Part shown: positions 33,090 through 61,900 of the stretch, piece by piece | Numbering within the stretch: the stretch's first letter is position 1 | Layout of the letters: the number at the start of each line of letters is the position of its first letter | Source of the DNA: Psammoneis japonica | Lineage: Eukaryota | Direction of reading: 5' to 3' | Length of the DNA: 64,000 bases | NCBI GenBank assembly: GCA_008632985.1 | Contig: QPGO01000001.1 | Coordinates: 528,404-592,403, forward strand | The notes under the pieces: generated by a model | Database searches by the model: none | The model's input: only the letters and a program-made list of their open reading frames with translations | Told to the model about the DNA's origin: nothing | Position numbers and translations under genes: made by a program

Positions 33090-33247
33090 CTACAATCCTT
33101 GATCTATGAGATTGACATTTTCGGAAACGACATTGTTGCTCCTTTGTAGCATTTCGAATGACGATTCTTTTTATCTGCACTGGTGGAGTTGAAGATGGCG
33201 GTCTCAATAGCACATCGCACCATTCTAATTTCTCTGTCGCAGAATCG

Positions 33248-37552: not shown

Positions 37553-37662
37553 CCGATTTTTCACTCACGACACCACCGTGATGACACGTTCTGTCGAATG
37601 AGCTCGGGCCCACCCGGAACAGTTGCCAAGCCATTTGGGCACAGCTGTGTCAATGAGATGCT

Positions 37663-38057
37663 GACGGGTTCCAGTGCCAGGTGGGACTTTTTGTGACATT
37701 TGCCCCGCAGAATTCTGCGTGCGAGCTCTGCAGTTCATGCTCTGGCCAATGGACACATTTGTCTTTGACACAAAACAAACAGCCAAGTTTGCAGTGCACA
37801 CATCTCTGTTCGTACTCAAAGTTTTGGACAACGCGCCTGCCCTGCACCATTCTTAAGACACTCGAGAATGGCGCAGAAGAAAAAAACATCAAAAGTTGTT
37901 GAATGGATCGCCTGACAATTGCACTGTAAAATGATGCAAAATTTCACCAAAATCACGTAGAAATGTGCGTGCGCGACATGCGATGCGATTCAAAAAACTG
38001 TCGATGTCACAGTTCAGCACCGGCAGCACGAGGTCCCACCTGGACCTGGAACGCGTC
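37663..38057 (+). mobile_element. MITE, GAC-TIR family, copy D
   Basis: TIRs as in copy C; TSD TGCT. Confidence 0.9.
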
Positions 38058-38574
38058 TGCTGCTTGCGGATCACACACATCTCATTGGCTCAGCAATTTT
38101 TCGTGGTTCACAAAAATGAATGATGGCAAAGGTTTCACGTGTTGTTTCATCATGTGCTTGGTGTCAATCCCAGTGGAAAACTGCACAGGCCTGCTCTGAG
38201 CCACAAACGCACATGCGACACATGCTGATGACCTTGTGCAGTCTTGCCATGGTCAGTGCCCCCAAGAAAGGCTTGTTTTTAATCTGTTCTTGAAACTGCA
38301 CTGACAAATGCCCCAAACGCCTGTGGTGGACAGAATTTGTTCAAACAGCAGCACTGTCCAGACACATCCCCAAGGGTGCAGCACCAGATGCAACTTCACC
38401 AGTCTTTGCTGTGGCTGGGCTCCAGCCAGCTGCTCTGGCTGGCAGCAGAGAGCACCATAGAATGGACTGCTGGAAATCCCAGAAATGACCTGAAACAGTC
38501 ATTTCTTGACGTGTCTGACAACCATGTTAAGAAATCACTGAATGAAAAGTGTTTTTGGACAAAGCTTTCATCAA

Positions 38575-41018
38575 CGGGGACCCCCCACAAGTCTGTGCAT
38601 TGTCCACAGCTCCTTCAGCTCCATGATTGCTGCGTGACATTTTTTCATTACAAAAACAGCAAACCAACCGTGGAGATTGCCGAGGCCGCATGGCTTCTCA
38701 TTGCCACTTTTCCAGCTGTGGTTCTAAGCACCGGCTAAATGCGCTCATCAAAACCCGGTTTTGCGCTCATTTGTGCGCTGAAACTGGCTGCGTGCATTCT
38801 GCGTAGATGCAGTGCTGACAGATGACGTCACAGCCTCCCTCCACCCCTGCGCGCACTGTCTGCGCGCACTGTCTGCGCGCTGCCGCGAGCTTCACAACCG
38901 TGACTGAGATCTCAGCATGCGACATTCTTGAGAGATCTGCATGTTTGAACAACTGAACAGCAAGCACTGTCACTTGCTTGAGCAGGTGACAGCTGCAAAT
39001 GCATGCAACAGTGAGTTTTATGACATGGCTGTCACTTCTTGTCTCTGCTGGAGAGGGCTGATTGCTTCTGTTGCAGTTGCAAGCTCATCACGAGTGCGTT
39101 GCAACGTTTGGGTGTGGCGCCACATAGAATCCTGGCATGTTTCTACGCAGCAGTGCATTTTTGCGCATTTGGTGCAAAATGAGACCCAAAAACTCAAAAA
39201 TGCGCACTGCGCATTTAGCCGGTCCTCATGTGGTTCCATGTGTGAGGATGGACAGCAACCTCATGCTGAAGCCACTGCAATGTGGTGGCTTTCCAGGACT
39301 CCATAAAAGTCCAGTGTCTCATCTGCCCTCTAAGGCGCATCAAACTCAGTTGCCCTCCCAGCAAACAACTGCAGAGGCAAGTGCCACTGCGCTGTTGCTC
39401 TGGCGGGTGAAGAACTCCAACACAATTGCTGTGAGGCACAGAGTTTTGAAGGGTGTCTTCCTCAAAGGATTGGGGACAAACATCTCCTCAGCAATGCAAG
39501 GGTGAAAAGGACTCTGTGCGGCAGTGGTGGAGGCAATTCAAACATTGTTGGCAGCAGGCCACTCGCACAAGAAGAACAAAGGTGGTGCTTCTCCTGATGC
39601 TTCTGGCAATTTGGAAAAATGTCACAGCAATTCAGAATCCAAGACTCTTGATGATGGTGGATCCAAAGAATTGGGTGAGAAATTGGTTGATTTGTTGATT
39701 GCTTCTGCAAATGAGCTGCGGCAGAGCAGCACACCCTTGCATGCCGGCATGCAGCAGGATGACACTTGAGAGCGGTTTCTCTGTGTTGGAGTTGCTTGAG
39801 CACAGCAATGGCTGTTCACACATGATCACAAGACACCAATGCAATGCTTTGCAGAGTGTTTCCATTTGACAACGACCGGAATCAAGGCCATCCGTGAGAA
39901 CACAACATGACTGGTGGTGTGTTGGGTGTTTCTCTGTGTGGGAGTTGCTCAAGCACTGCAGCAATTGCCATCACAAGACGCCAATGCAATGCTCTGTAGA
40001 GTCTTTCCATCAGACACAACCTGGAATGAGAGTGACAGAATCAAAACCTGGAATGCAGAGTTGTGGCAAATGCTGTGCATGCTGACAAACAGCAGTGTTT
40101 GCAGTTGCAGTTGTCCCAGCTCAGACCATGTTTCTAACCCTCAAACTGTCATTCTTTGATGGGCAGGCATGGTGAGTGTCCCACAAAAGACAGTTTGACT
40201 TTCCTTTTTTGTTTCCGGTGCCTCTGACTGAATGCATGTTTGTTTGTTGCCACCAATCCACAAAAGACAAAGCTTGTGGTGATTTTCATGTTCAAAACTT
40301 CTCTGTCAACAAAGGGACAGCCAAGGGCATTCTGCATCTCTTGCTTGTGCCTCTTCCTTCATTTCTTTCCATCGGCTTTGCCTTCCATTTGGGCAACCTG
40401 GTGGAGGCATTTGTTGTGTCACTGGCTTGGCGACGGCAACATAGAGACAAACAATTGTTGTCACAAAAACACCTGATGCTGTCAATCCTTTTAATCAAAT
40501 GTCACCAATGTGAGCAGAACAAATGATCTGTGTGAAAGTGTTGACAACAGGACAGTTGCAATGACCAAACAAATGCTTGTAAGATGCAAGATGTTGGCGC
40601 AACATGACAAAGAACATTGACATTTTGCGACTCACCCGTGGCACTGAAACCCTGGTTTTCTTCCATGCTGGCCCCGTGCATCATCCACCAGGATTGCATG
40701 CTTCTCTTCATTGGCTTTTTCTTCCATTTGAGTGGGCTTGGAGGCGTTTGGGGCATTGCTGCTGACTGGCAACTACAGCAACATTGAGATGCAACTGTCA
40801 TTGTTGCAAAACACTTTCTGCTGGCAATCCTTTTCACCAAATGTCAGCAACAGGAGCAGAACAAATGATTTGTTGAAAAGGATTGCCAGCAGAACAGCTG
40901 CAACAAGGTTGGCATGCAACAGATTCAAAGGGAAGTTGTTGTGGTTGATGACACGACAGGGACATGTTCAAGAAAGTTGCTCGATTGGACAGACGTGCAG
41001 ACTTGCGGGGGGTCCAAG
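38575..41018 (+). mobile_element. Non-autonomous TTAA-type (piggyBac-like) element, older copy of 57133-58710
   Basis: TIR CGGGGACCCCCCACAAGTCTGTGC / GTGCAGACTTGCGGGGGGTCCAAG; flanks TCAA and TTGA (both derivable from TTAA); colinear with the 57133 copy. Confidence 0.8.
38725..39228. mobile_element. hAT-type MITE nested in the TTAA element
   Basis: 8-bp TSD TGTGGTTC (38717-38724 and 39229-39236); TIR TAAGCACCGGCTAAATGCGC / GCGCATTTAGCCGGTCCTCA; absent from the 57133 copy. Confidence 0.85.
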
Positions 41019-41144
41019 TTGATTAAAAAAGTTGCAAAAACACAATTTGGTCATTTCCCATTTGTTGCTTCTACAAAACAACTTGCAGTTTCAGATTCAA
41101 CAAATCCAGTTTGTGATTTTGAAATCTTGAATCATGTGGTTTAA

Positions 41145-43396
41145 GGCTGGATCAATGTTTGGCAGCATTTTTTAAAATGGCTCGTGATTTTGTGATTTTC
41201 TTGCACTTCGCCCATGTCATTTTGCAATGCCTCTGAGACTGGCCACACAAAAAGGTGCTGACGGAGCTCAAAACAGCTCGGATGTTCGATTTTCAGGCAC
41301 TTGCACTGATTGAAAGCTCTTGTCGAGTGCTTTTCAGCCACGTGTGTGTTGTTTGTCAACTCCTTTTCCCTGATGAATGGAGGCCGGTGTGACACTTCAA
41401 CGGTCAAAACAATTTGTCATGGAGCATGTGCACACATGAAATTTGGTCATTTGTCATGCGATTGCATTCTGTGTGCTTTTTCTCAACGAACATTTTGGCA
41501 GCTTGAGAGTGCCCGTCAGCACCTTTCCATGTGGCCAGTCTCAAATCATGCATCTCTCGTGTGCACAGCATTTTTGTGTGAAATGCTTGAGCAGATGGGC
41601 TTTGCAGGTGTCTGGAATGAAGACGTTCTTCAAATGATTTTTTCTTTGGTGTCCAATTCCTCATTGCATGTGTGTCACAAACTTCCTCAGCAAACTCAGC
41701 GCTGATTGTGCAACAGCACATTGGACACAGAGATTGCTTTGCAGGTGGAACACCCACCAGAAAATGTCGCAGAAAAATTGCTCATGTTGACATCCAAATG
41801 ACTGCAACAATTTTGCCAAAAATCATCCGTTGTGTTGCAAATCCTCATTTGTCACACTTTAAAACACAAACGGCACAAAAAAATGACATTGCAACACTGG
41901 TGCAAGTCTTGTTGGTGTTGCAAAACATTCAAATTTGGACAAATCTGCACTTTTGTTGGTGAAAACTCGTTTGCAAGTAAGAGACCGTGCAAAAACTGCA
42001 CAAATGTTGTTTTTGTGCATGATTTGGGTCACTTGTGGCTGGAACACGTGAAGGGAGCACCATTTTCCAGTTGGTGCTCGACAATGATGCACACGGCCTC
42101 AAAAACAAATTTGATGTTTGTCACAGAGTTCCATTCTCAACTCAATCCCACAATTTAACAGGGGCTCTTCCCCAGTTTCTGTGCATGACTTTGGCATGCC
42201 CATTGTCTGGAGGGGGCACAACTCTGCATCCAGACACAACGCCGAGTCCCAACAATGTCTGCTGATGAGCAGAGCCGCGGCAAAAGCAAAATGACACTGT
42301 GCATCTAAACAGAAACGAAACACAAAAACTTTAGAGGACAACAACAAACAAACATCATTGACACACTCGCCACATTCAAGTTGCCTTCTTTCAATGCTGT
42401 TGCCACTGCATTGCAGCCCCAGCAACGGTCAATTCATTCACACAGTCATGTCGCGGCAACAAAAATGAATGAATTGTCTGCATCTGAACACAAAAGAAAC
42501 ACAAAAACAACAGATGACACCAATGAACAAATGAAAAAGGCATGCTCACAACACTCGATTCACCCCACATCAAACATCAACCCCATTGCCGCTGCAGTGC
42601 ATGCAGCCCCAGCAATGGTCAATCATTTGTGAGTGGAGCCAAGTTGCAAAGAAAGCAAAAAACACCCTCTCCATCTGAACAGAAAAGAAACACAAAAACT
42701 TTAAAAATTGCCAACAAACAAATGACATCATCACAAACTGCAAATTTGAGTTGCCTTGTGTCAATGCAAGTGCCCCTGTGATGTTGTCCCCATGGCGGTG
42801 CATTCATGAATGGTGCCGTGTTGCCATGGTGCGGCTGCTGCTGTTGATGGTGCACGTCATGGTTTTTTGATGAACAAGACATTTTTGAATTGTCTTGCCA
42901 CCCAACAACAGATTCTGCTTTTAACACACTGCACATGTGCTCCTTGTGAAAGATTTTGTCAGCCAACAACTGCATTGTTTAAGATCACATGCAGTTTCAG
43001 ATTGTGGCAAAACAGTTTGAGATTGCAGCAAATCTCAAACTGGCTGGTTTGAGATTTGTGAATCTCAAACTGCACAGTTTGAGGATGGATTGTCCAGATG
43101 AGGTCTGTTTGTTGGCATTTCCTGGAAAGTTGTGGCATGTCTCCCATGAGCAGTGCAATTTTGGTGAAAAACAGTGGTTTGTCAAATGTGACAACTGCAC
43201 CAAATCCAACAATTGGCATTTGAGGGTTGAAGTGTGCAGCTCACATGCAGATCTGACAGCCCTGATGGAGGCTGGACACACTCACAAGTGTTTGGGGGTG
43301 CTCAGAGGCATCACAAAACAACACGGGTGAAGTGCAAGAAAATTTCAAAATCACAAGCCAATTAAAAAAAATGCCTCATCTGGGCAATCCATCCTC
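41145..43396. mobile_element. Mosaic of TIR-element fragments (GGMTGGATC-terminus family at 41145 and, inverted, ending about 43396; right end of the 56776 element at about 41790-42050)
   Basis: TTAA|GGCTGGATC at 41141; 43100-43396 is the reverse complement of sequence at 50512-50780; 41820-42049 matches 57105-57128 plus 58715-58913 without the nested insert. Confidence 0.6.
42285..42760 (+). repeat. Degenerate tandem repeat, about 3 units of 180-190 bp
   Basis: CATCTRAACA(G/C)AAA.GAAACACAAAAAC at about 42302, 42481 and 42672. Confidence 0.65.
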
Positions 43397-44894
43397 AAGA
43401 TCAAGCATGGTTCAAGAGTGGAAAATGAGCAAAATGTCCCAAAGACAATGTTTGGACACAACAAGTCATTTTGAAAGAAAGCAAAGAAAATGTCTTGAAT
43501 GGTCTTGTGCATCATTCATTTCCATTCATGCCAGCAATCTTCAACTTGGCAAAAACATTTGAAATGACCTGATTCATTCAGTCATTTTTGGCAATGTCCC
43601 TGAACTCCAAGAGAGAAAATTTGTTGCATGCATGTTAAAACAGCAATGAATGTGTGATGAGCAGAACAAAAAAAATCCATCACCAACAAATGAGTGACAG
43701 TTGTTGTCACTTGGGAAATCCAAATGCTTTGAGAGAAACTCAAAGCATCCCAGTGATGTCCATTTAACATGAGACACAACGCATCTTGAAGAGCTCTTCT
43801 CAAGCTTTCTGCCAACGTGCAGGTTGTGGGGTTGTTGAGGACATCCTGAAAACCAGGCCTGCAGGGAGCGTTGACCACTTGTCTTTCTTTGTGGGTGCAG
43901 GTGTGTGCCGTTGCATGCTGCATTGCCTGCATGTGCGCAGGGCCCCACCACCGCGGCCGGCAGATTGTGGCGGCAGAGTGGCATGGCCACCACACCGGTG
44001 ACGTGGATGACCATCATGTTTGATGTCTCATGCCATTTTTGGGGCTGCAGCAAGGTGCACGGACACTCTTTTTTTCCAATTTGTTGCCATGACAATGCAT
44101 TGCACAAACTCACTTGTTGTTTGATGTGTTTTCCCCAATGTGAGTGTTTCATGCAGAATTCACAATTGGTTGTCATTGTCAACAATTGAGTGCATTTTTC
44201 AACATGCCACACCGGCAATCCCAGTTTTGACAGCACTTTTGAGCTCTCCTGAAAACAGTTCCACACGCACCCATCGCAGGGAATTGTTGATTTTTCAAGG
44301 ACATCCCCATGACCTCCAATGTCCCCAATGATCATTCCAAGAATTCGAACAGCTCATTTGTGCCAAACAACCCATCCCATTCCAAAATCCGAGGGACACA
44401 CTTTCAAATTCGGACAGACCAACTGCCCAACTGCCCGACCCCCCGACTGCCCAACTGCCTGACCCCCAACTGCCTGACTGACACAAAAACGTCTGCAATC
44501 ACCAACCACTGAGTGGTCAATGAAAAGTTTGCAATGTGTTTCAATGGCACGGCATGGAGATCTGAATGAATGAAAAAATGGCGACAATCGGCCTGTCCTT
44601 CTGTGCATTTAGAAAACTTGTGTGGGATTCTGTGCGTGCAATTTTGTGTGGGGCGATGCCAAATGGCAGTTGCGCAGCCATCAGCTCCTCATTCAAATTT
44701 GTGTGGGGCCAATGCAAATGGCACTTTTTTGATGATGATGTGGCAGCAGTGTCTTCAGTGCATTCCTGCAGCCACACCACAGCACATGCTTTGTGATGTG
44801 ACAATGTGATGTGTTGGAAAGTTTGAAATGGAGAGCTGCCTCATTGGCGGCATCTCTGATGGTGTTGCTTTCAACATGATTTTGTGAACTGAAT

Positions 44895-46790
44895 GTGGTG
44901 GCACTGGCGGCAGCAGGAGCCTTTTGCTGCATTTGCACTGGCAGCAGTTGGAGCCTGTGTGCCGCTGGCAATTGAGGTGGTCATGTCCTTTTTTGTCTGG
45001 TGGCGGTGGGTGTCCCTCTGCACGCTTCTGGCGCTGGTGGTGGTTGGAGCTTTTTTGCTGCCACTGGCAAAGTGGGAGCCTGTACACAGCCACCAGCGGC
45101 ACTGGTGGCAGTGAACACATGTGTGCCACTGGCACTGGAGGCAGTTGGAGCCTGTTGTTGCTGGCACTGGTGGCAGCGGGTGCCTGTGTGCCACTGCTGC
45201 ACTGGCGCTGGTGGCGGTGGGAGCCTGTGTGGCTGCTGGCACTGGCTGCGGTTGGAGCCTGTGCACCACTGGCTGTCAAGGTGATTTGAGCCTTTTCATC
45301 TGGTGGCAGTGCCCACCCCCATGTCCCACTGGCACTGGTGATGGTTGGAACTTTGTTGCTGCTGGCAGTGGTGGCTGCCAGTGGGAGCCTGTGTGTGCCA
45401 CTGGCGCTGGTGATGGTGAGAGCATGCACGGCTGCCAGCACTGGTTGAGGCAGTTGGAGAGCATGTGCACTGGTCCGCCAGCACTCAAGGTGGTTGGAGC
45501 CTTTTTGTCTGGTGGCGGTGGGCACCCCTGCATGCTGCTGACACTTGTGGTGGTTGGAGCTTTCTTGCTGCTGGCAGTGGTGGCAGTGGGAGCCTGTGTG
45601 CTGCCAGCAGTGGCAGTGGTGGGAGCCTGTGCACAGCCACCAGCAGTGGTGGCTGTGGGAGCTTCTACACTGCCAGCAATGGGGCAACGTGCTTTTCAAA
45701 AATCCGGTTCCCGTGCCAATCTACACAATTTCTGTGCATGTAGAATGTGCGGTGAATTTCGTGGTGATCAATTTGAATTCACTCCAACACACACAAACAT
45801 CACGGCAACAACGCCGCAACATCGGCTGTGGCCACACACAACAACAACAGCCAACTGGGGGGTTCTGGTGCACCAAGACGACAACTCACATGACAACAAA
45901 TGCAGCAAAAATGTTGGATGACAATGATCAAGTTATTTTGGGAGCTGGTTGAGCGATTGGTGACAACTGATTTTTTACATGCACAACTTGGTGCTGAAAG
46001 CACGCAGAGTTTTCAGCCATGGTGGGGCTGTTGATTTTCACTTTTTGTGGAGTGCATTTGGAGTTTTCTCGTTTGACTGCATTGATGAATCACTGAATGA
46101 GCATGCAACAAGAGATTTTGATGAAACGTTGGATTTTCACTCATCATGGAGGACTGTCGCGGGGTTTTTAGCACGGCGAAGCATGAAGGGACAATTTTTG
46201 CCCGGATTTTGCAAAGATCCTGTGTCCTGTCGAATTCGCATGCATGACATCAGTGGATTTGTGTGTTTTTTACATGCAAGAAGCATGTTGACATTGACAT
46301 GCCAGCACTGGTTCTGTGCAAGTGGGGTTCCACTGGGAACCGAATTTTTGAAAGTGCGTTGCCCCGTTGAGGCAGTTGGAGCCTTTTGCTGCTGGCACTT
46401 GTGGCAGCAGGTGCCTGTGCTCTGCTGCTGTGGCGCACTGGTGGTGGTGGGAGCCTGCACAGCCACTGGCGCTGGCATCAGTTGGAGCCTGTGCACTGCT
46501 GGCCATTGAGGCAGTTGGATCCGTTTTTGTCTGGTGGCAGTGCCCACCCCTCTGCATGCTGCTGGCGCTGGTGGTGGTTGGAGCATTTTTGCCACTGGCA
46601 TTGGTTGCAGTGGGAGCCTGGTTGCTGCTGGCATTGGTGGTGGTGGGAGCCTGTGCACAGCTGCCAGCACTGGAGGAGGTGGTTGCATGGTGGGGGCACC
46701 TGCCCCTGCATGCTGCTGGCAGTGCTGACACTGGCAACAGTTGGAGCCTTTTTGCAATGATGGTTCTGGTGGTGGTGGGAGCTTGCCAAC
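44895..46790. repeat. GC-rich minisatellite arrays (about 30-35-bp unit), 44895-45690 and 46365-46790
   Basis: Recurrent TGGCACTGGTGGCAGTGGGAGCCTGTG / GCAGTTGGAGCCTTTTTG(T)CTGGTGGC variants. Confidence 0.75.
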
Positions 46791-49700
46791 CATTGGCGGT
46801 GGGATCTTGAGATGACCGCTGACTCGTGGAGAGATTGCTTGGGGTTTTAGCACAATTTCATGTTTAAAAACCAGTGCTTCGGATCATTGACACAGATGCA
46901 AATGAAGGTGATCTCTTGTCTCTTTGCACTCTTTTGATGATGTGGTGCAATTGTGTCTTCTTTTTAGCATCGCGGCCGAGCAATTGATCCAATGCATTTG
47001 TGCAGCATGCCTCAGTGCTGGACAACACGGCGAGACCATGCATGGCCTCTTGTGCATGGCAGCGCAGCATTGCCAACATGCACCTGGGAAGCATGACCAC
47101 AGGAGGGCATGGCTCCATGTATCAGGCAATCTAGAAGAATGCCAAGAGAGCACCCGTGTGAAGCACTCTAACCTGTTGTCTGGCCCACAACAGCAGTGTG
47201 ATTCCACACGATGACATCACTCATGCATGGCGCGTGATGGTGTGATTTGCACGATCCACAATGCAAATGCACAATCAATTGGCATGATCCAAAATGCAAA
47301 CAAACAGGAATTTGGCAAGATTTCCCACTCACATGATTCCATTTCTCCACACATGAACTGGCTCACAATTTTCACAATGACACATTTGTGACACACCTGC
47401 TTTTTCATCACCCGTTGCATGCACAGGGCACAGTGATGTTGCTCCTGCACAGCATGCGAGGTTACAAAATCTACAAAAACGAATGCTGCGACATGTTGGC
47501 AGGACCGACAAACTCAAAAACCACCCTGAAGAAGCGTCTCAAGCCACCAATTCTGTTTGCACAGCTGGAGAAGAAGGAACCACAGCAGGGTGAGTGCCAG
47601 ACGTTCAAGCTGCACAACAACCCCGCTGATGCTGACAGTCCAATGCATGAGATGGGTCCACCATGCTTTTCTGCGGGAACATGCAAGGAACTTTTCATTT
47701 TTGTCTGCAACACCTGGCGACTGCATCAAGGACAAAACATCACTGCAGGGTGGGCAAAGTGTGCACTTGTGCGCAGGCTTCATGAGGGTGATGCCCTGAC
47801 AACCTTCAATGGTGCCGCTGATGCGCAACCTTCTGAAACCAACACTGCACATGCTGCATGCATGGCGAAGCTGAAGGAAAGCATCTTCCCTCACAGGGTG
47901 GTGCTGTTGCAGAAACGTTGTTTGTGAGACTTCGTGCACAAACCAACTGAGGTTTCTGCTCATGACCATGTCGTGAGGGCTGTTGAAGTTGATGGCTTCA
48001 TCTCTCAGTTTCCACCTGTGACGCAGGGAGGAGAAACACCAGAGCCATTGCCCAATGACAAACTCTGTGACTTGAACTCTGCATAATTTTGACCCGTTGG
48101 CTCATGCCATGTCCGAGTTTGTACAATTCTGCTGGCGGATCGAGCAGGTCGAGTCCACCGAAGGTAACCAGGACCAACATGCCAAGGTTCCACGCAAGCA
48201 GGGCCACAGAACGGACAATCCTGAGCCATTGATCACAAATCAGAAGAACACCCAGAAGTCATGCATGCTCCACGGGACTGACTGTGGACATCATGCGGAC
48301 AATTGCCGTGCACTCAAGCACCGCGTGAAACGTGTCAAGACCAGCCATGCCAATGGTGGAGGCAGCAAGCCTGACAAAAAACTTCAGAATGAAGAAGACA
48401 TTCACACCATCATTGGCATGAAGGTAGATGAACATTTTGCCAATGCTCAGAAAAAGCACAAGGCATGTGAGGAAGAGCTCAATCACTTCCGCAACCTCAA
48501 CTTAAGTGATTCCGACAATTTGGACGCCTGAGAAGGGGGCCGACACAACACTGGCAGTTTCAATGCATTGGACGAATGTGTGAATGAACAACTGACACAC
48601 CATCGCACACATGTTGCAGACCAATCCCGCAAACAAGTTAAAAAGACTCACCTCACACCAATCTTGTTTGCAGCTGTGAATGCTGAGCATGGCAAAGCAA
48701 GACTCAGACTGTCAAGGCGCTGCCAGATGGTGGTGCCAGCAGCGCTCCACTGGACAAGTGACGCTGCAAGTGTTTGTGAACCCGTTCAATGGCTGAGACA
48801 AGCTGGACAATGGCAGCAGGCTCATTCAGTGTAGTCAGTGATTGCGCCGTCAAATTTAAGTCACCAGAACCATCCGAGACTGCAGAACTCACACATGCCA
48901 TCCACGTGCACAATGGAAAGTTGGGCAAGTGCGACATGATCATTGGACAAGACATTCTGGAGACACAAGGCATGGACATTGTCTTCTCTAAACAGATGAC
49001 AGAGTGGCCAACAGTCAATGGAGAAGTGCCAATGTGGCACGCAGATGTGACAGTGGAAACCTCCTTCTTTCTCAACAATCCAGAAGCCTCAACTTCGGAA
49101 ACCGACTGGATTTCACGCAGCAGTTTGGATGCCAAGTGTGCGCCGGCATGGCTCAAGGACATGACACAAGGGGCAACAGGACTTTCTGTTGCACAACAGG
49201 ACAACCTCTTGGCATTGTTGAAATGCCATGAGTCCTCATTTGATGGGACATTGGGAGAATGGAAAGGAGAACCCTGCCACATCCAACTCAAGGATGACGC
49301 AGAACCACACCACGCTCGTCTGCACAAAGTGCCTCGTGCACACAAAGCTGCGCTGTGCAAAGAAGCAGAGCGCCTTGCACACACAGGTGTTCTCAAACGT
49401 GTCAACCGATCCCAATGGGCAGCTCCATCATTTGTCACACCAAAGAAAGACTCAACGGTGTGGTTTGTCAATGATTTCCAGGAGCTGAACAAATGGACCA
49501 AGCGATTGCCTTGTCCAATCCCTCACTTGATGGGACATCAGGAGAATGGAAGGGAGAACCCTGCCATGCCCAACTCAAAGAGGAAGTGGAGTGCCTTGTG
49601 CACACAGGTGTTCTCAAACATGTTGACCAATCCCAATGGGTGGCTCCATCATTTGTCACACGGAAGAAAGACTTGACGGTGCAGTTTGTCAATGACTTGA

Positions 49701-50511: not shown

Positions 50512-51005
50512 GGCTGGATCATTGTTTTGCACTGTTTTTTTAAACTGCACTTCGCCCGTGTCATTTTGCGATGCCTCTGAGCACCCCCAAACACATGTGA
50601 GTGTGTCCAGCCCCCATCAGGGCTGTTGGACCTGTGTGTGAACTGCACTTGTTAACCTTCAAACGCCAACCATTGTCTTTGGTGTGGTTGTCATGTTTGA
50701 CGAAGCTCCGTTTTTTGCCAAAATCTGACTGCTGACAGCAGACAAGCCACAACTTTCCAGGAAATGCCAACAATTGGCATTTGACCGGCCACCGACACAT
50801 CTGCAGTTGTCAAGCTGCACATCACGCATGGTTGCAACCATCACACGTGCATTCTCTGTGTTGTCTTACAAACAGACAAAGTTCAACCTGTCACTGAATT
50901 TTTGTTTGGCTGATGCGCGCAGTGTCAGTGCGACAAATCTGGGTTGTTTTTAAATGTTTGCAAGCTCTCCAAATGAAGTTGACCGCAAAACGATGATCAA
51001 TCCTT
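50512..51005 (+). mobile_element. Non-autonomous TIR element (GGMTGGATC termini) inserted in Gypsy RNase H
   Basis: TIR GGCTGGATCATTGTTTTGC / GCAAAACGATGATCAATCC; interrupts K-L-N-D at a former TTAA site. Confidence 0.7.
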
Positions 51006-51009
51006 TTAA

Positions 51010-51511
51010 CCCTTCAACCACTGGACTTGAGCAAATCTCCACGGGTGGAGATTTGCTTGCTTGCATCACAAACACAGTGCACGAAGCAACTTCAGACATG
51101 TGCGACATTTTGTTTGCGCGATTTTGTTTTGGACCGCGCATTCGCCAAAAATCTGGGGGAACCCTTTTTGTAATTTTGAAAGTTCAATGTCAACTTTTGA
51201 CACCGGGTTCTTTGCAAGCTGCATCTGTGAACAGAGAGGAACTAAATCTCAACATTCAACAGAGTGCAGGTTGTCATGAGCTGCTGTCACAAATGGAGCA
51301 ACAATGCCACACCCTTGGAGCAAATCTCCACCGGTGGAGATTTGCTCCCAAAATGAGCAAATGCACGTGGTGTGCTTTACGCAGATTGTGCATGATGTGA
51401 CATTTTTGTGCTGTGTCCATTGCATTGTTGTGAAAGTGCATGACACATCACAGATCCTCAAGTGGAGCAAATCTCCACGGGTGGAGATTTGCTCCCCTGG
51501 TGGTTGAAGGG
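51010..51511. mobile_element. piggyBac-type MITE with three internal palindromes
   Basis: TTAA|CCCTTCAACCAC ... GTGGTTGAAGGG|TTGA; GAGCAAATCTCCACSGGTGGAGATTTGCT at about 51029, 51318 and 51465. Confidence 0.85.
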
Positions 51512-51682
51512 TTGATGATGCACAACTGAGCTGTGCAACAACAGAGAGAGAATTGCTTGCCATTGTGGAGACGTTGAAAGAATTTCGAACAATGCTCCTT
51601 GGTCATCGTGTGATCGTGTGCACTGATCATAAAATCTCACGCACAAACTGTTCAATGCAAAACGCGTGATGTGCTGGCAGTT

Positions 51683-51973
51683 CAATGGCAATCTTTCGTG
51701 CCACAGAGTCATTGTTTCATGATGAAATTGTCTGTCCGTCCACCCTTGGTGAATTTTAATTCTGCGAAAAATGGACTTTGCTGCAAACTGATCAGGCGCA
51801 TTTTTAGAACAACACATTTGCAGAAATGCGCCTGATCAGTCAGCAGCAATGTCCGTTTTTGCAAAAGTTTTGAGATGACAACAGTTTTGGTGCAAAAACA
51901 TGTAGATTCTGTGGACGTCCACAAGCAATTTGTGCGATTTGTGTCACGGGTCATTTTCGAAAGATTCCTGTTG
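51683..51973. mobile_element. Short TIR insertion splitting the Gypsy RNase H end (RW...EEYG region)
   Basis: CAATGGCAATCTTTCG / CGAAAGATTCCTGTTG inverted ends; internal inverted repeat CTGATCAGGCGCATTT...AAATGCGCCTGATCAG; TSD unresolved. Confidence 0.55.
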
Positions 51974-53757
51974 ACATGTGAAGAACACGGTCCCAAATTG
52001 CATCATGTCAAGGGCACCCACAACCCAGTTGCTGATGCTCTTGGTTGCCTTTGGCTGGCACCACCTTTGCCTTCCGAATCCAATCCAGATGCAAAAGACA
52101 CTCCATTGAGTCATCCTTTGCATGAAGCTTTCAATGCAGACGGGCTGGATGTCGCACCTCTGCCTGTTGGCTTCAAGAGGACAAGTGCGTGCTGTCGCAA
52201 GCTGAGGACTCGTCTGACTGCTCCATTCGCGTGTGTCATGGGGGAGGGTCATCACGACAGTCAACATGTCACAAGGACAAAATCACAGCACCACAGTCTT
52301 TGCAGGTTCTGCCAACTGAATGGCACCATGAGACACTGTGTCATCCAGGTGAGGCACGTGCGGACATGTCCATTGCCCAGCACTTCTGCTGGCCTGGCAT
52401 GAGGTCTATGGTGCATTCTACGTGCATTGATTTCGATCGATGTCAGAGGACAAAACACCAAATGCAGTGTCATGGGAAGCTGCCAGAAAAGGTCACTGAG
52501 ACAACTCCATGGGAGACTCTGTGCATTGACATGACAGGCCCCTGTAAAATCCAAAGACATGGAAAGGACACCTTGCAATTGTGGGTGGTCACTGTGATCG
52601 ATCCGGCAACTGGATGGTTTGAGATCAAGGAAGTGTCTGCGAAATGCGCAGACGCAGCAGCAAATGTTGTGGAACAAACTTGGCCATGCCGATGTCCGTG
52701 GCCAACCCAGGCAGTGCATGACCGTGGGACAGAGTTCATGACAGATTTTAGCCAAATGATCAAAAATGACTGTGGGATTCTGAAGAAACCCACAAGTGAA
52801 TGCAATCCACAGGCGAGCGCCACAGTGGAACGTGCGCACCAGACACTTGGTGATGTGGTGTGTTCATTTTCAGTGCAAGACACGGAAGTGGACAAGGATG
52901 ACCCATGGAGTGGCATTCTGTCTGCTGCAGCCTTTGCTGTCAGAGCTGCGGCACACACAACCACACATGCAAGCCCCGCGTGGTTGGTCTTTGGACGGGA
53001 TGCAATTTCATCTGTTGCCCATCATGCTGAGTCGAAGCACATGGAAACCAGAAAGCAGAAGCTTGTTGACTGAAACAACAAGCATGAAAATCAGAAATGC
53101 AAAGAGCACTGATGTGCCACTGGGCAGTTGGCACTCACAAAACAAGAACAATCTTCTAAGCACAGTTCTGACTGCTGTGCAGGACCTGCCAGAGTTGTCT
53201 GTGTGTGTGACAATGGCACGTTGCACACCCAGAACAGAGCGCTGATGGATGCGCACAATCTGCGGCAGATTGTGCCCCATCACCAGCAAGACATTCTGTC
53301 ACTCAACAGCCCTGATCATGGGAGAGTGTGCAGCATGCCTCAGCACTGGACAACACTGCAAGACCATGCAGAGCCTCTTGTGCATGGCAGTGCAGTGTTG
53401 CCAACACGCACCTGGGAAGCACGACCATGGGAGGGCGTGGCTCAATGTCTCAGGCTGTCTAGAAGGATGTTAAGATGGCACCCGTGTGAAGCACTCTAAC
53501 CCGTTGTCTGGCCCACAACAGCAGGGTGGTTCCACACAATGACATCCCTCATGCATGGCGCGTGATGGTGTGATTCGCACGACCCACAATGCGAAGGCAC
53601 GATCAATTGGTGCGATCCAAAATGCAAACAAACAGGAATTTGGCAAGATTCCCTGTTTGCACAACTCCATTTCTCTGCACATAAACTGGCTCATAATTTT
53701 CACAACGACACATTTGCAACACATCTGCTTTTCGTCACCCATTGCATGCACAGGGCA

Positions 53758-56700
53758 TTTGCACTGCATCAGATTTTCAACTCACATGCCTGGCAACACA
53801 CGGACAGTGCGACCATTTTTTCCACAACTTCATGCCACAAATCACCAAACACTTGTCACTCTTCATGCACAATGCACGTTTGATCACTCTGAAGAGGAAA
53901 TTTTCCATTTGTTGCCAGTTTGTGCCAGAGCCACCCTGAAACTTGCAGTGCAAAGTCTTGCTGCTTTCCAACTCCTCCCTCCGACGACCCGAAACCAACT
54001 CGCGGTGAAGCATGAGAATGTGTCAAACAGTGGCGGCACCAGCTGTTGTTGGCTCTGCCACTTTTTGCACCACTCTTCTTTCACACATGCAGGTCAATTG
54101 GCCACGCTGCATGATCACAGCAACAGAAAGTGCAGCAATGGGTGGTGCCATCATTGCAAAGTGCCGATGGTGTTTCCTGCATGGCCATGTGTTGTTTTGT
54201 GAGAGGCACAGGTGAAACATTGGAGGGAGTCTCTGCAGAATGACTCTGTGTGGCCTCCCGGTGCAAACTGGCAATGAATGGAAAATTTCCTCTTCAGAGT
54301 GACAGAACAAGCTTTGCATGCAAAGAGTGATTGGCACTTTGCAGTGGTCCATGGGCAATCGTCCAGCCATGCAGGTGGCTCTTCACAAACTGTGCAGGGC
54401 CCTGGGGCATGCACTGGAACTTGTGCAGAATCCTGTGACAACACAACTCCATTTCTGTGATGACAACAAGCAGCAATGCACGGTCCAATCTGGTGCACTT
54501 TGCATGATGACATGAAAGAGGGAATCCTCTTCTTTCCTTCATTCCTGCTGAAATGCTCCCAATTTGGCATGTCATTTAGTCTTGGCACCAAACACCAGGG
54601 TGCCGCACCCGCATTTTTTCAACAAGGAAATTGTTGTGCATTTGACCAAGAAATTGGTCAACACAATTGATTGCAGTCATTCTGGTCCTCATTCAGGAGC
54701 TTTTGCTGTGATGATGCAAGATCAAAATCTCTTTGACATGTGCCAAAATGAAAACCCAGGGTGGCACACCCGCGCGCGTGAAACAGCTGCATCTCTTTTA
54801 GACCAAATGCTTTGCCATTGGTTTCCCATTGAGACCTCTTCAGAACTTGACACAGAACAACAGTGTGGCATCATGTCATGTCGAAAGTGTGTTGGCAATG
54901 TCAAACAGAGCAGCTGTGAACAGAAATCCGGGCCCAAACAACAGTGTGCTGCAAGAAATGGCCATGCATGTTGCACTTTGATGTGTCTTGACATGGCAAA
55001 CATCATGGAGCCAATGCAGTTTTCATGGATGATCTCTTTCTGTCATTGTTGTGAAGAGGTTGAGTTGCTGGTTTGGTTTCCTGGGGGGCTTTGGTTGTGA
55101 CACATGGCGCAAATGGTTGCGGGCCTTGACTTGTGCCTCCATTGCTGTGCAGTGCGGATGACATCTTAACAGTTGACGACATTGCCGTGGTGAGTTGGTT
55201 TCTCTGTTTTCTCATTTTGTGACATTTGTGTGCTCACCAAAAATGTTGTTTGTGCTTTGTCACAGCTTCACAGGTGAAGCAATCATCTCGCATGGTCGAT
55301 CATTGCATCTGCAATGTCAGCATCTTTTTCATGCCTTTTGAACCATCACAGCACATTCATTTGGGAGCCTTGTGCTTCACCCCACTCTGCATCCTTTGAT
55401 GTGCCTGTTGCAAACACCAAGCTGGATTTGTGACTCGCTTTGTGTCCTTCTTGGGGTCTTGGTTGGCGCAAAATGACGGCATGTCATTTTCTGGCCATCA
55501 CAATTTCTGAAAAGTGCACGCCGCACAAACAAGATGATGCGATGGACCCTCGGGGATGCCCATGATGTTGGCACTTGTCAGACAGCCTCAGCACAGTTCG
55601 AACAAGGTACAATTGTGAGTGTGTTGTGGTTGATGGATGTTTGGGGCGTTTTGACAAACTCGCAGACCTCGCCAGCTCTTTTTGGTGTGTCTGTTTCATG
55701 CATGCAGGTGTCTGGTCCATGGCAAGCCTTCTTCCTGCTGTGCAACCACATTGTCTTCCTTGTCTAAGACATGATGTCACCCATGCCATTTTGGGAGATC
55801 TTGGTGCAGCACCAACAAGTCCAGGCTTTGAAATGGGCAAAATGGGGAGATGGAGGCTTGCGTGGCTGGGATCCTTGCTGGCTCTCAAGTGTGTGGATGT
55901 CACGAACCACTGGCGACACTTGGGGCCATGAAATTTGGCAGCGCAACTCAGCACTTTCTCTGAAAGGTGTTCCAGTGAGTGTGCTGAGATGTGAGGCCTC
56001 AGTGGCTTGTTGTTGTCTGCATTGTTCCATTCATGTTTTCATTTTGCCTGCCATTTTGCCAGCATGGATGTCTGGGACTGTGCGAGCTTGCAGCAGCTTT
56101 CCCAGGCCAATGTTCCACATGAAATGAGTCTTTTGATGTCATTTGTTGATTTGGGGAAATTTGTTTGTGAAACGTTCAGTCTAGCGAGGAAATGGATAAA
56201 ACAATTTGGAGCCGGTTGTAGAAAAGTGATGAAATTTTTGGCGAGCATGCTGTTGTGTGTCAACGGCAGGGACATGGATGTCCAGTTAGATGGGAAGTGA
56301 CACACCCACGTGGTGGCCACAGGGAGCTTGAGACCTTTGCGTTGATGTTGAGGTTTGTCCAACATGCGCAGACAGACAAAAATCAAATGTTAAAAATCAA
56401 CATGGGCAGCCCCTTTGACAGGCCAAAAGTGGGGGAAACTGAATGTCAACTCTCACACACACCACACCGACATGATGCCACATCAACTTTGTTCTGTTGT
56501 TTTGTTCTCCTTTGTGATTCCACTGTTGCTCTCTGTTGTGATCACATGCCAATGCACTTGCTTCTCTGTTGGCTTGTCATGAGCAAGCGCATCTTGCAAG
56601 CGCCATTTTGCTTCCTCTTTGTGGGGTTGAACCTGAATCTTGTGAGGATTTGCCAGCCAATCAGTGGTTGAAAGCTGCAAAGCAACAATCAACCAAAACA

Positions 56701-56771
56701 CAACTCTTGGAAGGAGTGGCTGTAAAATGGCAAGGTGCACAACAATTTCTGTGTCAGAGAAATTGTGGGCC
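53758..56771. repeat. Unclassified TpA-depleted transposon remnants
   Basis: Same compositional signature. Inverted homology CACTCTGAAGAGGAAATTTTCCATT (about 53885) versus AATGGAAAATTTCCTCTTCAGAGTG (about 54278). Confidence 0.45.
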
Positions 56772-56775
56772 AATC

Positions 56776-58913
56776 GACGTGTTCCAGTCCCAGGTGACGC
56801 ACAAAACGACAATCGATTTTGAGTGTAATTTATGCATCCTTTAGTGTATGAAGCATTTTCACACAAAATACTTAGACAGATTGACTTTTTTTAGGCTTGT
56901 AGAGCATGAAAATTTAAATAATTTTTTGAGGGGTATTCAAGTCCTCATGGGATATGTATCATAAACTTCCTCAGTAGACTCAATTCTGATTGTACGTCAG
57001 TAGATTTATACTTAGATTTCTTTGTAGGTAAAAAACCTACCAAATGGCATCGTAGAAAGACACATTTAGGTAACATCCAAATAACGGCCATTTTTTTGCC
57101 GAATATCATCCGTTGTGTCACGAATCTTTTAACGGGGACCCCCCGTAAGTCTGTACATCGCCCGTGGCTGCTTCAGCTCCGCGATAGCTCCGTGAAATTT
57201 TTTTATCACAAAAACAGCAAACCAACCACGAAGATCACCGAGGCCGTAAGGCTTCTTATGACCGCTTTTCCAGCTAGGTTGCCATGCATGTGGATGGACA
57301 GTGACCTCATGCTGAAGGCACTGCAACGTGGTGTCTTTCCATGACCACATAAAGATGACATCTCATCTGCTCTCCGAGGTGCCTCAAATTCACTTGCCCT
57401 CCGAGTAGACGACTGCGGAGGCAAGCGCTGCCATGCTGTTGCTCTGGCGGGTGAAGAACTCCAGCGCAATTGCTGTGAAGCACAGGAGTTTGAAGGGTGT
57501 CATCTTCAAAGAATTGGGAGCAAACATTTCCTGAGCAGCGCGAGGGAAAAGGACGGCACGGCAGCAGTGGAGGCCACTCAAATGTTGCAAGAAGCAGGCC
57601 ACTCACAAAAGGAGAATAACGGTGATGCTGCTCCCCAAGCTTGTGGCAATTCGGAAATGCAGCAAAGTGATTCAGAATCCAAGACTGTTGGTGATTGTGG
57701 ACGCAAAGAACCGGGTGAGAAATTGGTCGACATTGATTGGTCCATTGATTTTTTGCAAATGAGCTGCAGCAGCATGCCGTTGCATGACGATTGAGAGTGG
57801 TTTCTCTGTTTGGAGCCACTTGAGTGTGGCAACAACCATTGTCACATGATTCTAAGACACCAACGCAATGCTTTGCAGAGCATTGCCATTCGTCAACGAT
57901 CGGAATCAAGGCATCTGCGAAAACGCAACACGACTGGCGTGTTTGGTGTTTTTCTCTGTGCGGGAGTTGCTCGAGCACTGCAGCAGCCACTGTTGTGGTG
58001 TAAGACACCAATGCAATGCTTTGTAGAGTGTTTCCATCAGGCGCAACCCACTGTAGAATCGAGAGTTGCAGCATCAAAACCTGGAATTTAGAGCTGCACA
58101 TGCTGGCAAAAACAGCAGCGCGTCCAGTTGCAGTTTTCCCATTTCTGTCCATGTTTGTAACCTTCTGCTGTCAATCCTTTTGACCAAACCTCATCAACAG
58201 GATCAGAACAAATGATCCGTGGGAAAGCATTGACAGCCGGACAGTTGCAACGACCAAACAAACGTTTGTAAGATGCCAGACATTGGCGCAACACGAGAAA
58301 GAACATCAACATTTTGCGACTTGCTCCTCGTGCTGAAATCCTGGTCATCTTCCACACTAGAACCATGCATCATGTGCCGGCATTGCATGCTTCTTTTCGT
58401 CGGAGATTTCTTCCATTTGGGTGGGCTTGGAGGCGTTTGGGGTGTCGCTGCTGATTGGCAACGGCGACATTGATTTGCAATTGTTGTTGTCACAAAACAC
58501 TTTCTGCTGGTGATGCTTTTCGCCAAATGTCCCCAACAGGAGTAGAACAAACGATTTGTTGAAAACGATCGCCAGCAGGACAGCTGCAACAACGTTGGCA
58601 TGCAACAGACTCAAAGGGAAGTTGTCGCGTTGATTGACACGAGAAGGGTTGCGTTCCACTCAGAAAAGTGGCTCAATCGGATGGACGTACAGACTTACGG
58701 GGGGTCCCCGTCAACGCAATGAAAAACACAGATGGCACAACAACAATGACATTGCAACACTCACACGAGTCTTGTCAGTGTTGCAAGACATTTGTGTTTG
58801 TGTGAATCTACACTTTTGGTGGTGAAAGTTTGAACGTAAGTTAGGGACCGCGCAAAAATCGCGCAAATGTCGTTTTTGTGCACGATTTGGTTCACGTGCG
58901 GCTGGAACACGTC
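56776..58913 (+). mobile_element. GAC-TIR-family non-autonomous element (about 556 bp net) carrying a nested TTAA element
   Basis: TIR GACGTGTTCCAGTCCCAGGTGA / TCACGTGCGGCTGGAACACGTC; 4-bp TSD AATC. Confidence 0.85.
57133..58710 (+). mobile_element. Non-autonomous TTAA-type (piggyBac-like) element, 1578 bp
   Basis: 24-bp perfect TIR CGGGGACCCCCCGTAAGTCTGTAC; flanks TTAA (left) and TCAA (right); no recognisable ORF. Confidence 0.88.
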
Positions 58914-58917
58914 AATC

Positions 58918-61900
58918 CAATGTGAAAATGAAAGTGATCTTTTGTGAGCGTTTTGAAATCATGATCAACTGAGTCTCTTTGAAATGTCCAGAGATTCTGC
59001 AAAATGTCTCGTTGCAGATTCTGTGCTGGTCTTTGCATGTGGGTTCGACGCTCTTGCTCTGTCTTCTAAGAAATGCACACATGTTGGGTCACGCAGATTT
59101 GACATGACTGATGTGTGCATTTTGTCACACTCCCTTCAGCAGTGTTGGGCGGAACGGTGATGTGTCCAACAATCTGCCAGCAGAGAAGGAACTTTTTGTG
59201 TCTGAGAAAGTCATGCTGCAGCAGAGGCTTTGTGAACATGTCTCCAACTTGATGTGATGCATCAACAGGACAGATCAAAACAACTCCCTTGTGAACATGG
59301 TCCTTGAAATGATGAAGCATGTTGTTGAAATGTTTGGTGTCTGTGGTTGCATCTTGGGCAGACGTGCCATCTCAAGAGCACTGGAATTGTCCTCAAATGC
59401 CTTGCAATGGACCTTGGGTGTGTCTGAGATGAGCGGGAGTGACCGTTTTCCTTGAGCTCATTCAGAATGTTCACAATTGGAATGGCGCTCCGAAGACTTT
59501 CTGAAAGTGCAATAAATTCTGCTTCAGCTGCACTTGGTGCCACTTGAGTTTGCAATTTGGATGACCATGCAATCGGACATCCTGCAAATGCAATGACGCA
59601 CAGCAACCTGTCCTTGACTTGGCAGTGCTTGTGTCACAGGTTGCAGTTGGCTTGCTCCAATTGCCTGCAAAGTTGGCATTCGCGCAAACTTCCAATGACT
59701 TGTCCTTGGGATGGATCTACATGCTGCGGTCTGTTTTTTGGGAGCTTGCAATTTTATAAAAACAACCTGGATTCTTTTGCTGAATGCACGCACTCACTAA
59801 AAACAAAATTTCGGTGACAGGTCGAACTTTGTCCGTTTCAAAGACACCACAAAATGCACAAACAATGGTTGTGAGCATGCGCAACTTTTACCTTGTCAAC
59901 AGCAGACATGTCCACAGCCAGTCAAATGCCACTCATTGGATTTTCCCAAAAAGTCGCAGCCAATCTGCCATGAGAAGCCCGATTTCAGTGATGGTTGGCG
60001 GTTTTTTCAACCTGGCAACAGGGCATGGGCCGACAAGTGGCATTTGAAGCTTTGAATTTGCAGCTCTCATGCCAGTGCAACAGCCCTGAGAAGGGCTTGA
60101 CGAATGCACAAGTGCTTGGGGGGTGTTCGAGGCAGGTCAAAATGACACAATGAAGTGTGGGAAATGCGAGCCATTTTAAATTAGACCGCAGCACGTAGAT
60201 CCATCCTCAATTGAATCAAGCATGATTCCTTCTTGGGCAGCATTGTGAAGGCACTTGCAAAGCCACGGTGCAGCTTTGCTGTGCGCTCACTTTGGGTCTT
60301 CGGAAAATCAGGTGATTTGATGTGCCACACAAGCAATGTCGGGTCGAGTTCACTTCTCGAGGAAGTTGAGTTTGCCGACCACAGCTCGGCAGTGGAAGCT
60401 CCCTTCAAATGATGAGTCATTCTTGTTTTGATGTGGCATCTTGGAGGAAGGAGCTGGAGTGGATTTGCTGGCTGCTCTTTTCAGCAAGTTTGCCATTTGC
60501 AGCATCTGTTGGATGAGGTGCGGTTGCACATGCTTCACACGACCATCAGGAAGCATCTCGACATTGATGCCGAGGTGGTCTTTGATGCTCCCTTGATCAT
60601 CAATGTCAACGTTTTTGTTCTTGACATCCAGAATTGCTTTGCAGATTGCATCTTTGTCAGGAGAAGCAAAAACACCGTCATCAACACAGTGCACAAACAG
60701 CACGTTGCTTCGGCAGCACAGGCATCTGTCAACATTGGATTGTTTGAATCCAATTCTGAGCAATCCCTCTTTGAGATGTTCTCCCCAAACTCGTCCTGCT
60801 TGCTTTTGTCCATGCAGATTCTTCAACAGTTGCAAAACACAATGAGTCTTGCCATCACCACATTTTGTCTCAATTCCTTTGGGCAATTCCACACACATGT
60901 TGCACTCAATGTTGGCATGTGGATGGGCAAGGATGAAGTCAACTTGGCGTGTGTGCCATCTGTTGAGGATGGATGGGATGAGGATCAATCATGTGGTGCA
61001 CCAGTTTATGACTGGGGTGCATGTGTCAAAACAGTTGACTGCACATTCCTGTTTTCCATGGCGCACATTCAATCTTGCTTTCCACTTGTGTGCTTTCTGA
61101 GTTTTGATGTCTTGCTTGTGTTTCATGGACCATGCTGAAGGCAAGACCTTGACTCCCTCTGGAACTTGATCTCTGGGAATCAATCTCCAGTGTTTGTGCT
61201 TGATGTGGTCATTGACCTCTTTGACTGCTGCCTTTGTAAATTCATCTTGGTCAGGTTCATGCATGGCTTCATCAAAGTGCATGATGTCTTGGTCGGATGG
61301 AGTCACAAATGATGGGGGTTGGCCCATGTCATCTTGGAGACAACAATCTTCCTTGTGCATTGTTTGGCACTCACACTTGGCTGCCCCATGTTTGCTTGTG
61401 TGGGGGCATTGTTGCCAGCGAGTTCTTGTTTGGTGCCTGTGAGCACTTCATCAGGTGAGCCAAATTCTGTGTCCTTGATTTGTTGTGGAATCACAGGTTC
61501 CAGATCAACTCTTGGTGCTTGAGCTGCTGTGGGCTCCCTTGACTCTTCTGATTGCCAAAACATGTTGAATCGACTTGGCCCAGCTTGTTTCTTGAAGCCT
61601 GCTGCAGTCTGCCATTGGGAAAATGTTGGAGGATTTCCAGCAGATGGTCTGACAGTTTCAAAAAAGTCATTGCATTGCAAATGGAATTGTGGTGACATCA
61701 GGCCTGTTTCCAAATTCAAGACTGGTGATGTCAAACTGGCATGTCTTGGTGATGGACTAAGATTGATTCCAAGTCTTGCTCTTTGGCTCCACTTTGGCAT
61801 GCGTCCTCCACCTTGCAATCTGTTGTTCAGAGCACAGACTGGGCATCCGAATTTGTGGTGAGCTTTGACGGAAGCAAACCTTTTGATCAGTGAGGAACCA

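Follow-up and report, generated by a model that had tools for sequence, protein, structure and literature searches.

The window analysed here is a 64,000-nt stretch of the genome of the diatom Psammoneis japonica (assembly GCA_008632985.1, contig QPGO01000001.1, positions 528,404 to 592,403), the right-hand part of which is a domain of mobile elements nearly devoid of TpA dinucleotides. The ratio of observed to expected TpA (o/e) is 0.25 over the whole window; open reading frames (ORFs) and genes have 0.31-0.53, as against 0.02-0.22 for the elements within the domain at 37.5-64 kb, so that mobile DNA is hit and host genes are spared. Within this TpA-erased repeat domain (window positions 37500..64000) the ratio per 500 nt is mostly 0.00-0.20, with an island at 56500-57500, and every element described next is contained in it. 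Family A is present in two copies. Copy 1 (38571..41022, element 38575-41018; TpA o/e 0.10) has a terminal inverted repeat (TIR) starting with CGGGGACCCCCC and is flanked by the target-site duplications (TSDs) TCAA and TTGA, which are opposite variants of TTAA. Its right end at 41018 shows two changes relative to the family A end and is followed by the letters TTGA TTAA; as this end is degenerate, the TTGA at 41019 was called by length alignment to the family A terminus. Inserted in copy 1 is a hAT-like non-autonomous element, family D (38717..39236, element 38725-39228), with the 8-bp TSD TGTGGTTC on both sides and TIR ends reading TAAG and TGAG. Family A copy 2 (57129..58714, element 57133-58710) has the TSD pair TTAA/TCAA, and its unchanged TTAA adjoins TpA-richer DNA. 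Family B, a piggyBac-like miniature inverted-repeat transposable element (MITE; 51006..51515, element 51010-51511), has CCCTT termini and the TSD pair TTAA/TTGA, has lost 37 of 41 ancestral TA sites and sits within a Gypsy-type retroelement (integrase domain at 52126-53073). Family C, a Kolobok-like MITE of a TTAA-specific family (59706..60210, element 59709-60206), has GG...CC termini and has lost 27 of 35 TA sites; its left flank reads TTG or TTGG, one base short, and its right flank TCAA, and a short-read contig over 59451-59738 matches the left end without any difference. Close by, on the minus strand, lies a Copia-type reverse transcriptase fragment of 212 aa (60350..60988) without a single tyrosine, where 8.4 are expected.

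Elements of the piggyBac group carry CC-pyrimidine termini, and family B combines such termini with a TTAA TSD. Family C, with its TTAA TSD and GG...CC termini, agrees with the TTAA TSD and 5'-RR...YY-3' termini given for Kolobok (PMC9587614). The termini of family A begin with CGGGG and agree with neither the piggyBac (CC-pyrimidine) nor the Kolobok (RR) rule, and the family was left unclassified. A 7-kb family A copy elsewhere in the genome (L165, G000:C2:838691-845705) has CGGGG termini, a TTAA TSD and a DDE_Tnp_4 transposase frame, and its other strand contains a frame for an XPG/FEN1-like nuclease. A 9.4-kb copy was also considered as a transposase carrier and rejected, its extra length being a nested Copia-type insert. 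Family D has an 8-bp TSD and a short TIR as in hAT elements, and its label was assigned by TSD length.

A preliminary description of this DNA had proposed that its TSDs record a change of TpA after insertion. The three TTAA-type pairs on which it drew (TCAA/TTGA at 38571/41019, TTAA/TCAA at 57129/58711 and TTAA/TTGA at 51006/51512) all read as described. The pair TTG/TCA at 59706/60207 was read correctly as well; its assignment to a TTA-specific element is replaced here, since relatives are flanked by the 4-mers TTAA, TTGA or TCAA and the family is thus TTAA-specific. Likewise, TAAG and TGAG are the hAT TIR ends, which are element DNA and do not count as TSD evidence. The genome-wide tally of TSD variants suggested in that description was run on the copies returned by searches of the genome contigs with both family A ends and with whole copies of families B, C and D, the family tallies covering 30 loci per search. 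For families B and C the best 40 of 121 and the best 40 of 134 candidates, respectively, ordered by likeness to the window copy, were scored. The resulting set of 56 copies leaves out duplicates with common flanks (L068, L076) and loci without a right end (L088, L111). Family A contributed 22 usable left ends and 21 usable right ends, out of 30 each, once a duplicate and truncated ends had been left out; four of these right ends have common flanks and hence are not independent. For the classification of pairs, TTGG, GTGG and TTGC were counted as TTGA, and CCAA and TCAC as TCAA.

Across the three TTAA-specific families, the 155 readable ends comprise 60 TTAA, 41 TTGA, 41 TCAA and 13 others. The 112 ends of families B and C contribute 37 TTAA, 31 TTGA, 31 TCAA, three CCAA, three TTGG and seven singletons, and the 43 ends of family A contribute 23, 10 and 10 of the first three classes. 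The variants thus lie at the central TA, with TTGA as frequent as TCAA. Among 66 classifiable pairs 15 were intact, 25 had one changed side and 26 had two, and opposite variants are found in 14 of these 26. Independent change of the two sides would give 11.5 intact, 32 one-sided and 22.5 doubly changed pairs, half of the latter discordant; the small surplus of intact and doubly changed pairs fits a mix of copy ages. Searches with young copies as queries largely returned the same loci. The new ones, which were kept out of the tally, added three TTAA/TTAA pairs, one TTCA/TCAA pair and a few single ends. Family D served as a control: with one unclear pair left out, 12 of its 14 readable 8-bp TSD pairs showed no difference between the two sides, the exceptions consisting of two CpG changes and one A/G difference, and the terminal TA of the element read TA in 22, CA in 10 and TG in 9 of 41 ends. 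The two CpG differences are found in the pair at L137 (AATGTTGG versus AACGTCGG), so that TSDs bear traces of CpG decay as well.

An element inserted at a variant target site would have that variant or TTAA on either flank, never TTGA together with TCAA, and the 14 discordant pairs therefore cannot stem from variant target sites. Copy age points the same way. Seven copies with less than 35% TA loss have TTAA at 13 of 14 ends, the remaining one being TTAG, while the other 49 copies have 24 intact and 71 changed ends (p=2e-7), and three of the seven low-loss copies lie in TpA-erased flanks. For insertion at variable sites, or with a variant overhang carried along from the donor site, it can be said that about 7% of piggyBac insertions have been reported at non-canonical sites such as CTAA, TTAG and TAAA (PMC3983033), and that TTGA and TCAA together outnumber TTAA 12-fold in the erased DNA of the window (806 versus 66). 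However, the non-canonical piggyBac sites differ from TTAA in the outer bases, and here TTAG occurs at 1 and CTAA at 0 of 155 ends; together with the discordant pairs and the TTAA of young copies this makes such an origin very improbable. Variable targeting or random variants, which the preliminary description had named as observations that would speak against it, were not encountered, 142 of 155 ends being TTAA, TTGA or TCAA. No better a case can be made for a sequencing or assembly artefact, in which a modified base would be miscalled in long reads: short-read contigs of 288-666 nt from run X1, which may be the source sample and so not independent of the assembly, agree with the erased DNA without any substitution, and the same scars are seen at the protein level in unrelated public assemblies.

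We therefore regard a hypermutation of TpA on the chromosome, after insertion, as close to certain. The TSD result removes RNA editing, reverse transcriptase error and loose targeting as explanations. The claim of the preliminary description that the change was made in the chromosome, not by reverse transcription or RNA editing, is further borne out by its occurrence in DNA transposons, on both strands equally and independently in each copy.

In alignments of the copies, adjacent columns show either TA/TG/CA or CG/TG/CA, two classes that separate cleanly, and where TG or CA is otherwise invariant a change to TA is practically never seen. When the 56 MITE copies were compared with their inferred ancestor, A>G changes were found at 1465 of 4227 TpA (34.7%), 141 of 5355 ApA (2.6%), 106 of 3151 CpA (3.4%) and 76 of 3048 GpA (2.5%). 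Transitions from A:T to G:C are thus restricted to TpA (34.7% versus 2.5-3.4% per A), as in the process described from Bigelowiella natans that is discussed below. C>T changes in the same copies amounted to 14.6% at CpG and 1.4% at CpA. The direction from TA to TG or CA is fixed independently of the TSDs by the Copia reverse transcriptase fragment, in which cysteine or histidine occupies seven of the seven columns where tyrosine is conserved in 120 public homologues. The reverse course, decay of an ancestral TCGA through CpG deamination or through repeat-induced point mutation (RIP; CpA>TpA), would agree with the depletion of CpG in the domain. TCGA was found at none of the 155 ends, though, and the invariant TG/CA columns and the tyrosine replacements also contradict this course, which is the least probable of all that we considered.

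Change at TA is also fast. In 20 young family C copies with less than 3% other divergence, 397 of 693 TA, 138 of 756 CG and 113 of 7001 other sites had changed, corresponding to per-base hazards of 0.43, 0.10 and 0.016, and copy L093 had lost 27 of 35 TA sites with merely 0.3% other change. TA loss and CG loss correlate per copy (rho 0.74). This covariation speaks for a model of the same timing in which the TpA change is a by-product of error-prone repair by a polymerase-eta-like enzyme at T:G mismatches that arise from 5-methylcytosine deamination in methylated repeats, and a second A change in 6 of 112 ends (TTGG/CCAA) could be cited in its favour. Polymerase eta leaves a signature at WA, that is, at TA and AA. 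Such a signature is not seen here, ApA>ApG (2.6%) being no higher than the change at GpA (2.5%). Loss of TA moreover runs about four times ahead of loss of CG, copies near 50% TA loss having lost just 3-11% of CG, and adjacent changes lack strand coordination. TGG following TGA (17 of 288) is not in excess of ancestral TGA>TGG (25 of 653; p=0.17). The reading of TTGG/CCAA as a processive double change was dropped, as these ends are indistinguishable from ordinary TGA>TGG. Taken together, repair as the source seems improbable to us, if only slightly more so than the thymine model considered below.

Both strands are equally affected, with a TG share of changes of 0.48 and 0.43 and no bias per copy (p=0.43 and 0.12). 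Clusters of strand-coordinated neighbouring changes were not found, the proportion of same-strand neighbours being 0.518 in the observed and 0.518 in the permuted data. Outcomes common to several copies were no more frequent than in permuted data, which implies that the scars did not spread through multiplication of mutated copies. The sequence context was estimated by a competing-risk fit to 2016 site observations. Relative to A, the effect of the 3' base was 2.55 (1.5-4.4) for C, 3.29 (2.3-6.0) for T and 1.15 for G, with bootstrap intervals for C and T that exclude 1; TAC and TAT are thus favoured by the process and TAG is not. The effect of the 5' base is milder, with A highest and G lowest. 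Three TA sites near the right end are hardly ever mutated, namely TTTAAA and ATTAGA in family C and TTTAGA in family B (intact in 24-27 of 24-29 copies), possibly owing to protection by a bound protein or to context. Near-identical duplicates differ mainly at CpG (TA versus CG differences 2 versus 7, 0 versus 2 and 0 versus 1), and present-day activity at TpA may be low or episodic.

With regard to mechanism, a transposon inserts at TTAA, and TpA in the element and in both TSD copies is afterwards converted to TpG or CpA on the chromosome, singly, site by site and strand by strand. The agent would likely be a TadA/ADAT-type deaminase of the host that acts on DNA adenine in repeat chromatin, with the resulting inosine presumably copied as G; it may be recruited by silenced, probably CpG-methylated chromatin, and its action could serve defence, as it ruins coding frames and the ends to which transposase binds. 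As an overall explanation, we find post-insertion change by such a deaminase moderately probable. For adenine deamination taken by itself as the chemistry we see the balance as even, and we infer adenine as the damaged base and an enzyme as responsible. Substrates of ADAT have U33 as the 5' neighbour. The preference for TAC and TAT appears to fit TadA/ADAT2, for which a review table gives the context 5'ACG, better than ADAR, with 5'UAG in the same table (PMC10661471). ADAT2-like and TadA-like genes were found in the genome, and a search with profile PF02245 detected no MPG/AAG glycosylase there (the control matched 4 of 14).

Several observations weigh against this explanation. ADAT2 is common to every eukaryote. 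Profile searches yielded no dedicated or expanded deaminase, the nine PF00383 and five PF14437 matches all looking like housekeeping genes. A gene for endonuclease V, which is able to act on inosine, is present. A processive single-strand deaminase would be expected to leave strand-coordinated clusters, unlike what we found, and the tracking of CG loss by TA loss (rho 0.74) is equally expected from the repair-triggered model. Finally, TpA is palindromic, and a lesion at A cannot be separated from one at T in the sequence. This leads to a model of the same timing in which the thymine of repeat TpA would be modified, for example toward hydroxymethyl- or formyluracil, and pair with G to give T>C. 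It predicts the same sequences, the context as seen from the T side being 5'-purine-T-A, and modified thymines do occur in other protists. A search of the genome for TET/JBP gave no match but was uninformative, as the control was silent too; we consider this model unlikely.

The affected DNA appears to be bounded by repeat domains. In copies with at least 40% TA loss, ends followed by 150 nt of TpA-depleted DNA were changed in 70 cases, intact in 20 and different from both in 2; for ends with a TpA-normal flank the corresponding counts were 1, 4 and 1 (Fisher p=0.014). TA sites survive at 10-30 nt from half-erased copies (L094, L115, L117), and a small pooled profile of unique flanks (12 versus 5 ends) shows normal TA density in the first 25 nt and a lower one at 100-200 nt. 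Mutated TSDs nearly always adjoin TpA-erased DNA and hence give no proof of spread into ordinary host DNA; they establish timing, not spread into unique DNA. The statement of the preliminary description that TSDs are host DNA accordingly stands for pre-existing chromosome and falls for ordinary host DNA, as 70 of the 71 changed TSD ends of heavily mutated copies adjoin TpA-depleted DNA.

The change extends to a multi-copy gene. A C5-methyltransferase gene is present in at least four copies that are 87-96% alike and TpA-erased (o/e 0.00-0.09), differently in each copy, with a catalytic frame holding no or one tyrosine (L180-L182 and L186; G000:C297:3900-6600 and 36100-40300, G000:C301:34800-36800). 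The copies form part of duplicated blocks of up to 8 kb, whereas gene pairs of 75% and 85% identity are not TpA-erased, and this hints at homology sensing. A MITE at L097 has lost 66% of its TA though the DNA beyond 200 nt on both sides is TpA-normal. Both observations would suit a RIP-like targeting, in which methyltransferases related to DNMT4 and RID, or homology sensing, would mark high-identity repeats and the TpA change would follow by either chemistry. The genome does contain several C5-methyltransferase genes of this type: PF00145 has 27 matches, among which are two DNMT2-like genes and several intact ones that resemble DNMT1 or DNMT4. For the candidate genes the name DNMT4 is our presumption, made from motifs and DNMT1-like best matches. 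Diatom DNMT4 has been described as related to RID, with its function not established (PMC9998398). On the other hand, the erased methyltransferase copies are located within long stretches of erased DNA, possibly as cargo of transposons, and no path is known from a C5-cytosine methyltransferase to A:T>G:C. Targeting of this sort is thus rather doubtful, though less so than the repair and thymine models.

Other parts of the window have normal TpA. Control ORFs and host genes at 127..12205 have an o/e of 0.31-0.49 and include two FG-GAP repeat genes (4338-6278 and 10706-12205), an inverted pair about 75% alike without TpA erasure, and two host ORFs on the minus strand at 30263..37033, one of them TPR/Sel1, have 0.51-0.53 and adjoin the erased domain. 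Further features are an 883-aa open frame at 127-2778 (o/e 0.31, not erased) without Pfam match, with motifs that may be those of a tyrosine recombinase, a RusA-like Holliday-junction resolvase gene (PF05866) at 3187-3852, here in a diatom, and a HOOK gene with diatoms as its named best matches.

The scar is not confined to this genome. Five of the 120 public Copia reverse transcriptase homologues are poor in tyrosine and carry cysteine or histidine in conserved tyrosine columns (P0128, P0130, P0192, P0228, P0230; L195-L198). Two of these proteins reach at most 63% and 72% identity, over partial matches, to anything scored in the present genome, and these copies hence come from other organisms. 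Two metagenome copies that are 97% alike (L197, L198) differ at 39 TA<>TG/CA sites, of which one copy has lost 33 and the other 6; their remaining differences are 4 TG/CA-split, 19 CpG, 14 other transitions and 10 transversions.

The TpA process is likely a host defence. A more far-reaching and tentative idea, which we hold to be less probable than not, is that diatoms, and perhaps algae of the SAR group (stramenopiles, alveolates and Rhizaria) broadly, possess a dedicated defence mirroring RIP, in which repeat sensing would direct a double-strand DNA adenine editor to TpA and so erase transposons, their termini and redundant genes. If this were true, the Copia scar in unrelated assemblies would indicate a widespread pathway, with a naturally occurring A-to-G editor of genomic DNA as its enzyme. 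Known repeat-mutating defences target cytosine, and a chromosomal A:T>G:C process that alters the majority of TA sites in every class of transposon would add a second defence chemistry, in a group that includes major marine primary producers. There are practical consequences as well. Since TAG and most TAA stops are removed and tyrosine turns into cysteine or histidine, dead elements retain long open frames that end up annotated as genes. Ages estimated for these transposons from divergence come out too high, and the majority consensus is wrong at TA sites. Discordant TTGA/TCAA pairs, in turn, offer a cheap clock that can be used in any genome.

Among known systems, decay of 5-methylcytosine (CpG>TpG/CpA) in DNMT5-methylated diatom transposons resembles the TpA change in its products, its domains and the correlation per copy, but it forms a column class of its own and is about four times slower. 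Editing of retroelements by ADAR or APOBEC also produces deamination-type transitions in mobile DNA. Its targets are RNA or cDNA, however, and its scars are one-stranded and within the element only, whereas DNA transposons and TSDs are hit on both strands in the diatom, where the ADAR context TAG is not favoured either. RIP of ascomycete fungi likewise consists of dinucleotide-specific transitions in repeats that arise after insertion, copy by copy, and wreck termini and ORFs. The mutations of RIP come in strand-coordinated runs, and the process depends on homology and on a sexual cycle. Such runs are absent in the diatom (0.518 versus 0.518 permuted), and RIP creates TpA by C:G>T:A while the diatom process removes it (C>T at CpA 1.4%).

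In the literature searched, which covered few subscription journals and included a term check of two diatom genome papers, we found no report of the TpA>TpG/CpA pattern from diatoms. The closest relative is a process in the rhizarian Bigelowiella natans, for which a bioRxiv preprint of 2026 describes de novo TpA>TpG/CpA mutations in integrated viruses during mutation accumulation, proposes ADAT2 and suggests that transposons are affected too (10.64898/2026.01.13.699255). Both processes change T/A to C/G only at TpA, on both strands and in chromosomal DNA of foreign origin, and in both a long-term depletion of TpA goes along with a gain of TpG and CpA; domains related to transposable elements are enriched among the depleted coding sequences of Bigelowiella. 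The two differ in extent. The preprint describes rates raised locally about 1000-fold at two viral inserts, of which one is single-copy, and a mild depletion (rho 0.45), whereas the change in the diatom is near saturation (o/e 0.0-0.2) over DNA transposons, long terminal repeat elements and a multi-copy gene block. In the diatom it is dated by TSDs to the time after insertion, and its 3' pyrimidine preference has no counterpart in the main text of the preprint. The diatom process thus works like the one in Bigelowiella, in another lineage, on all transposon classes and near saturation, and it is not RIP. New in the present work are the test by means of TSDs, the context of the mutated sites and the finding that retroelements of other organisms bear this scar as well.

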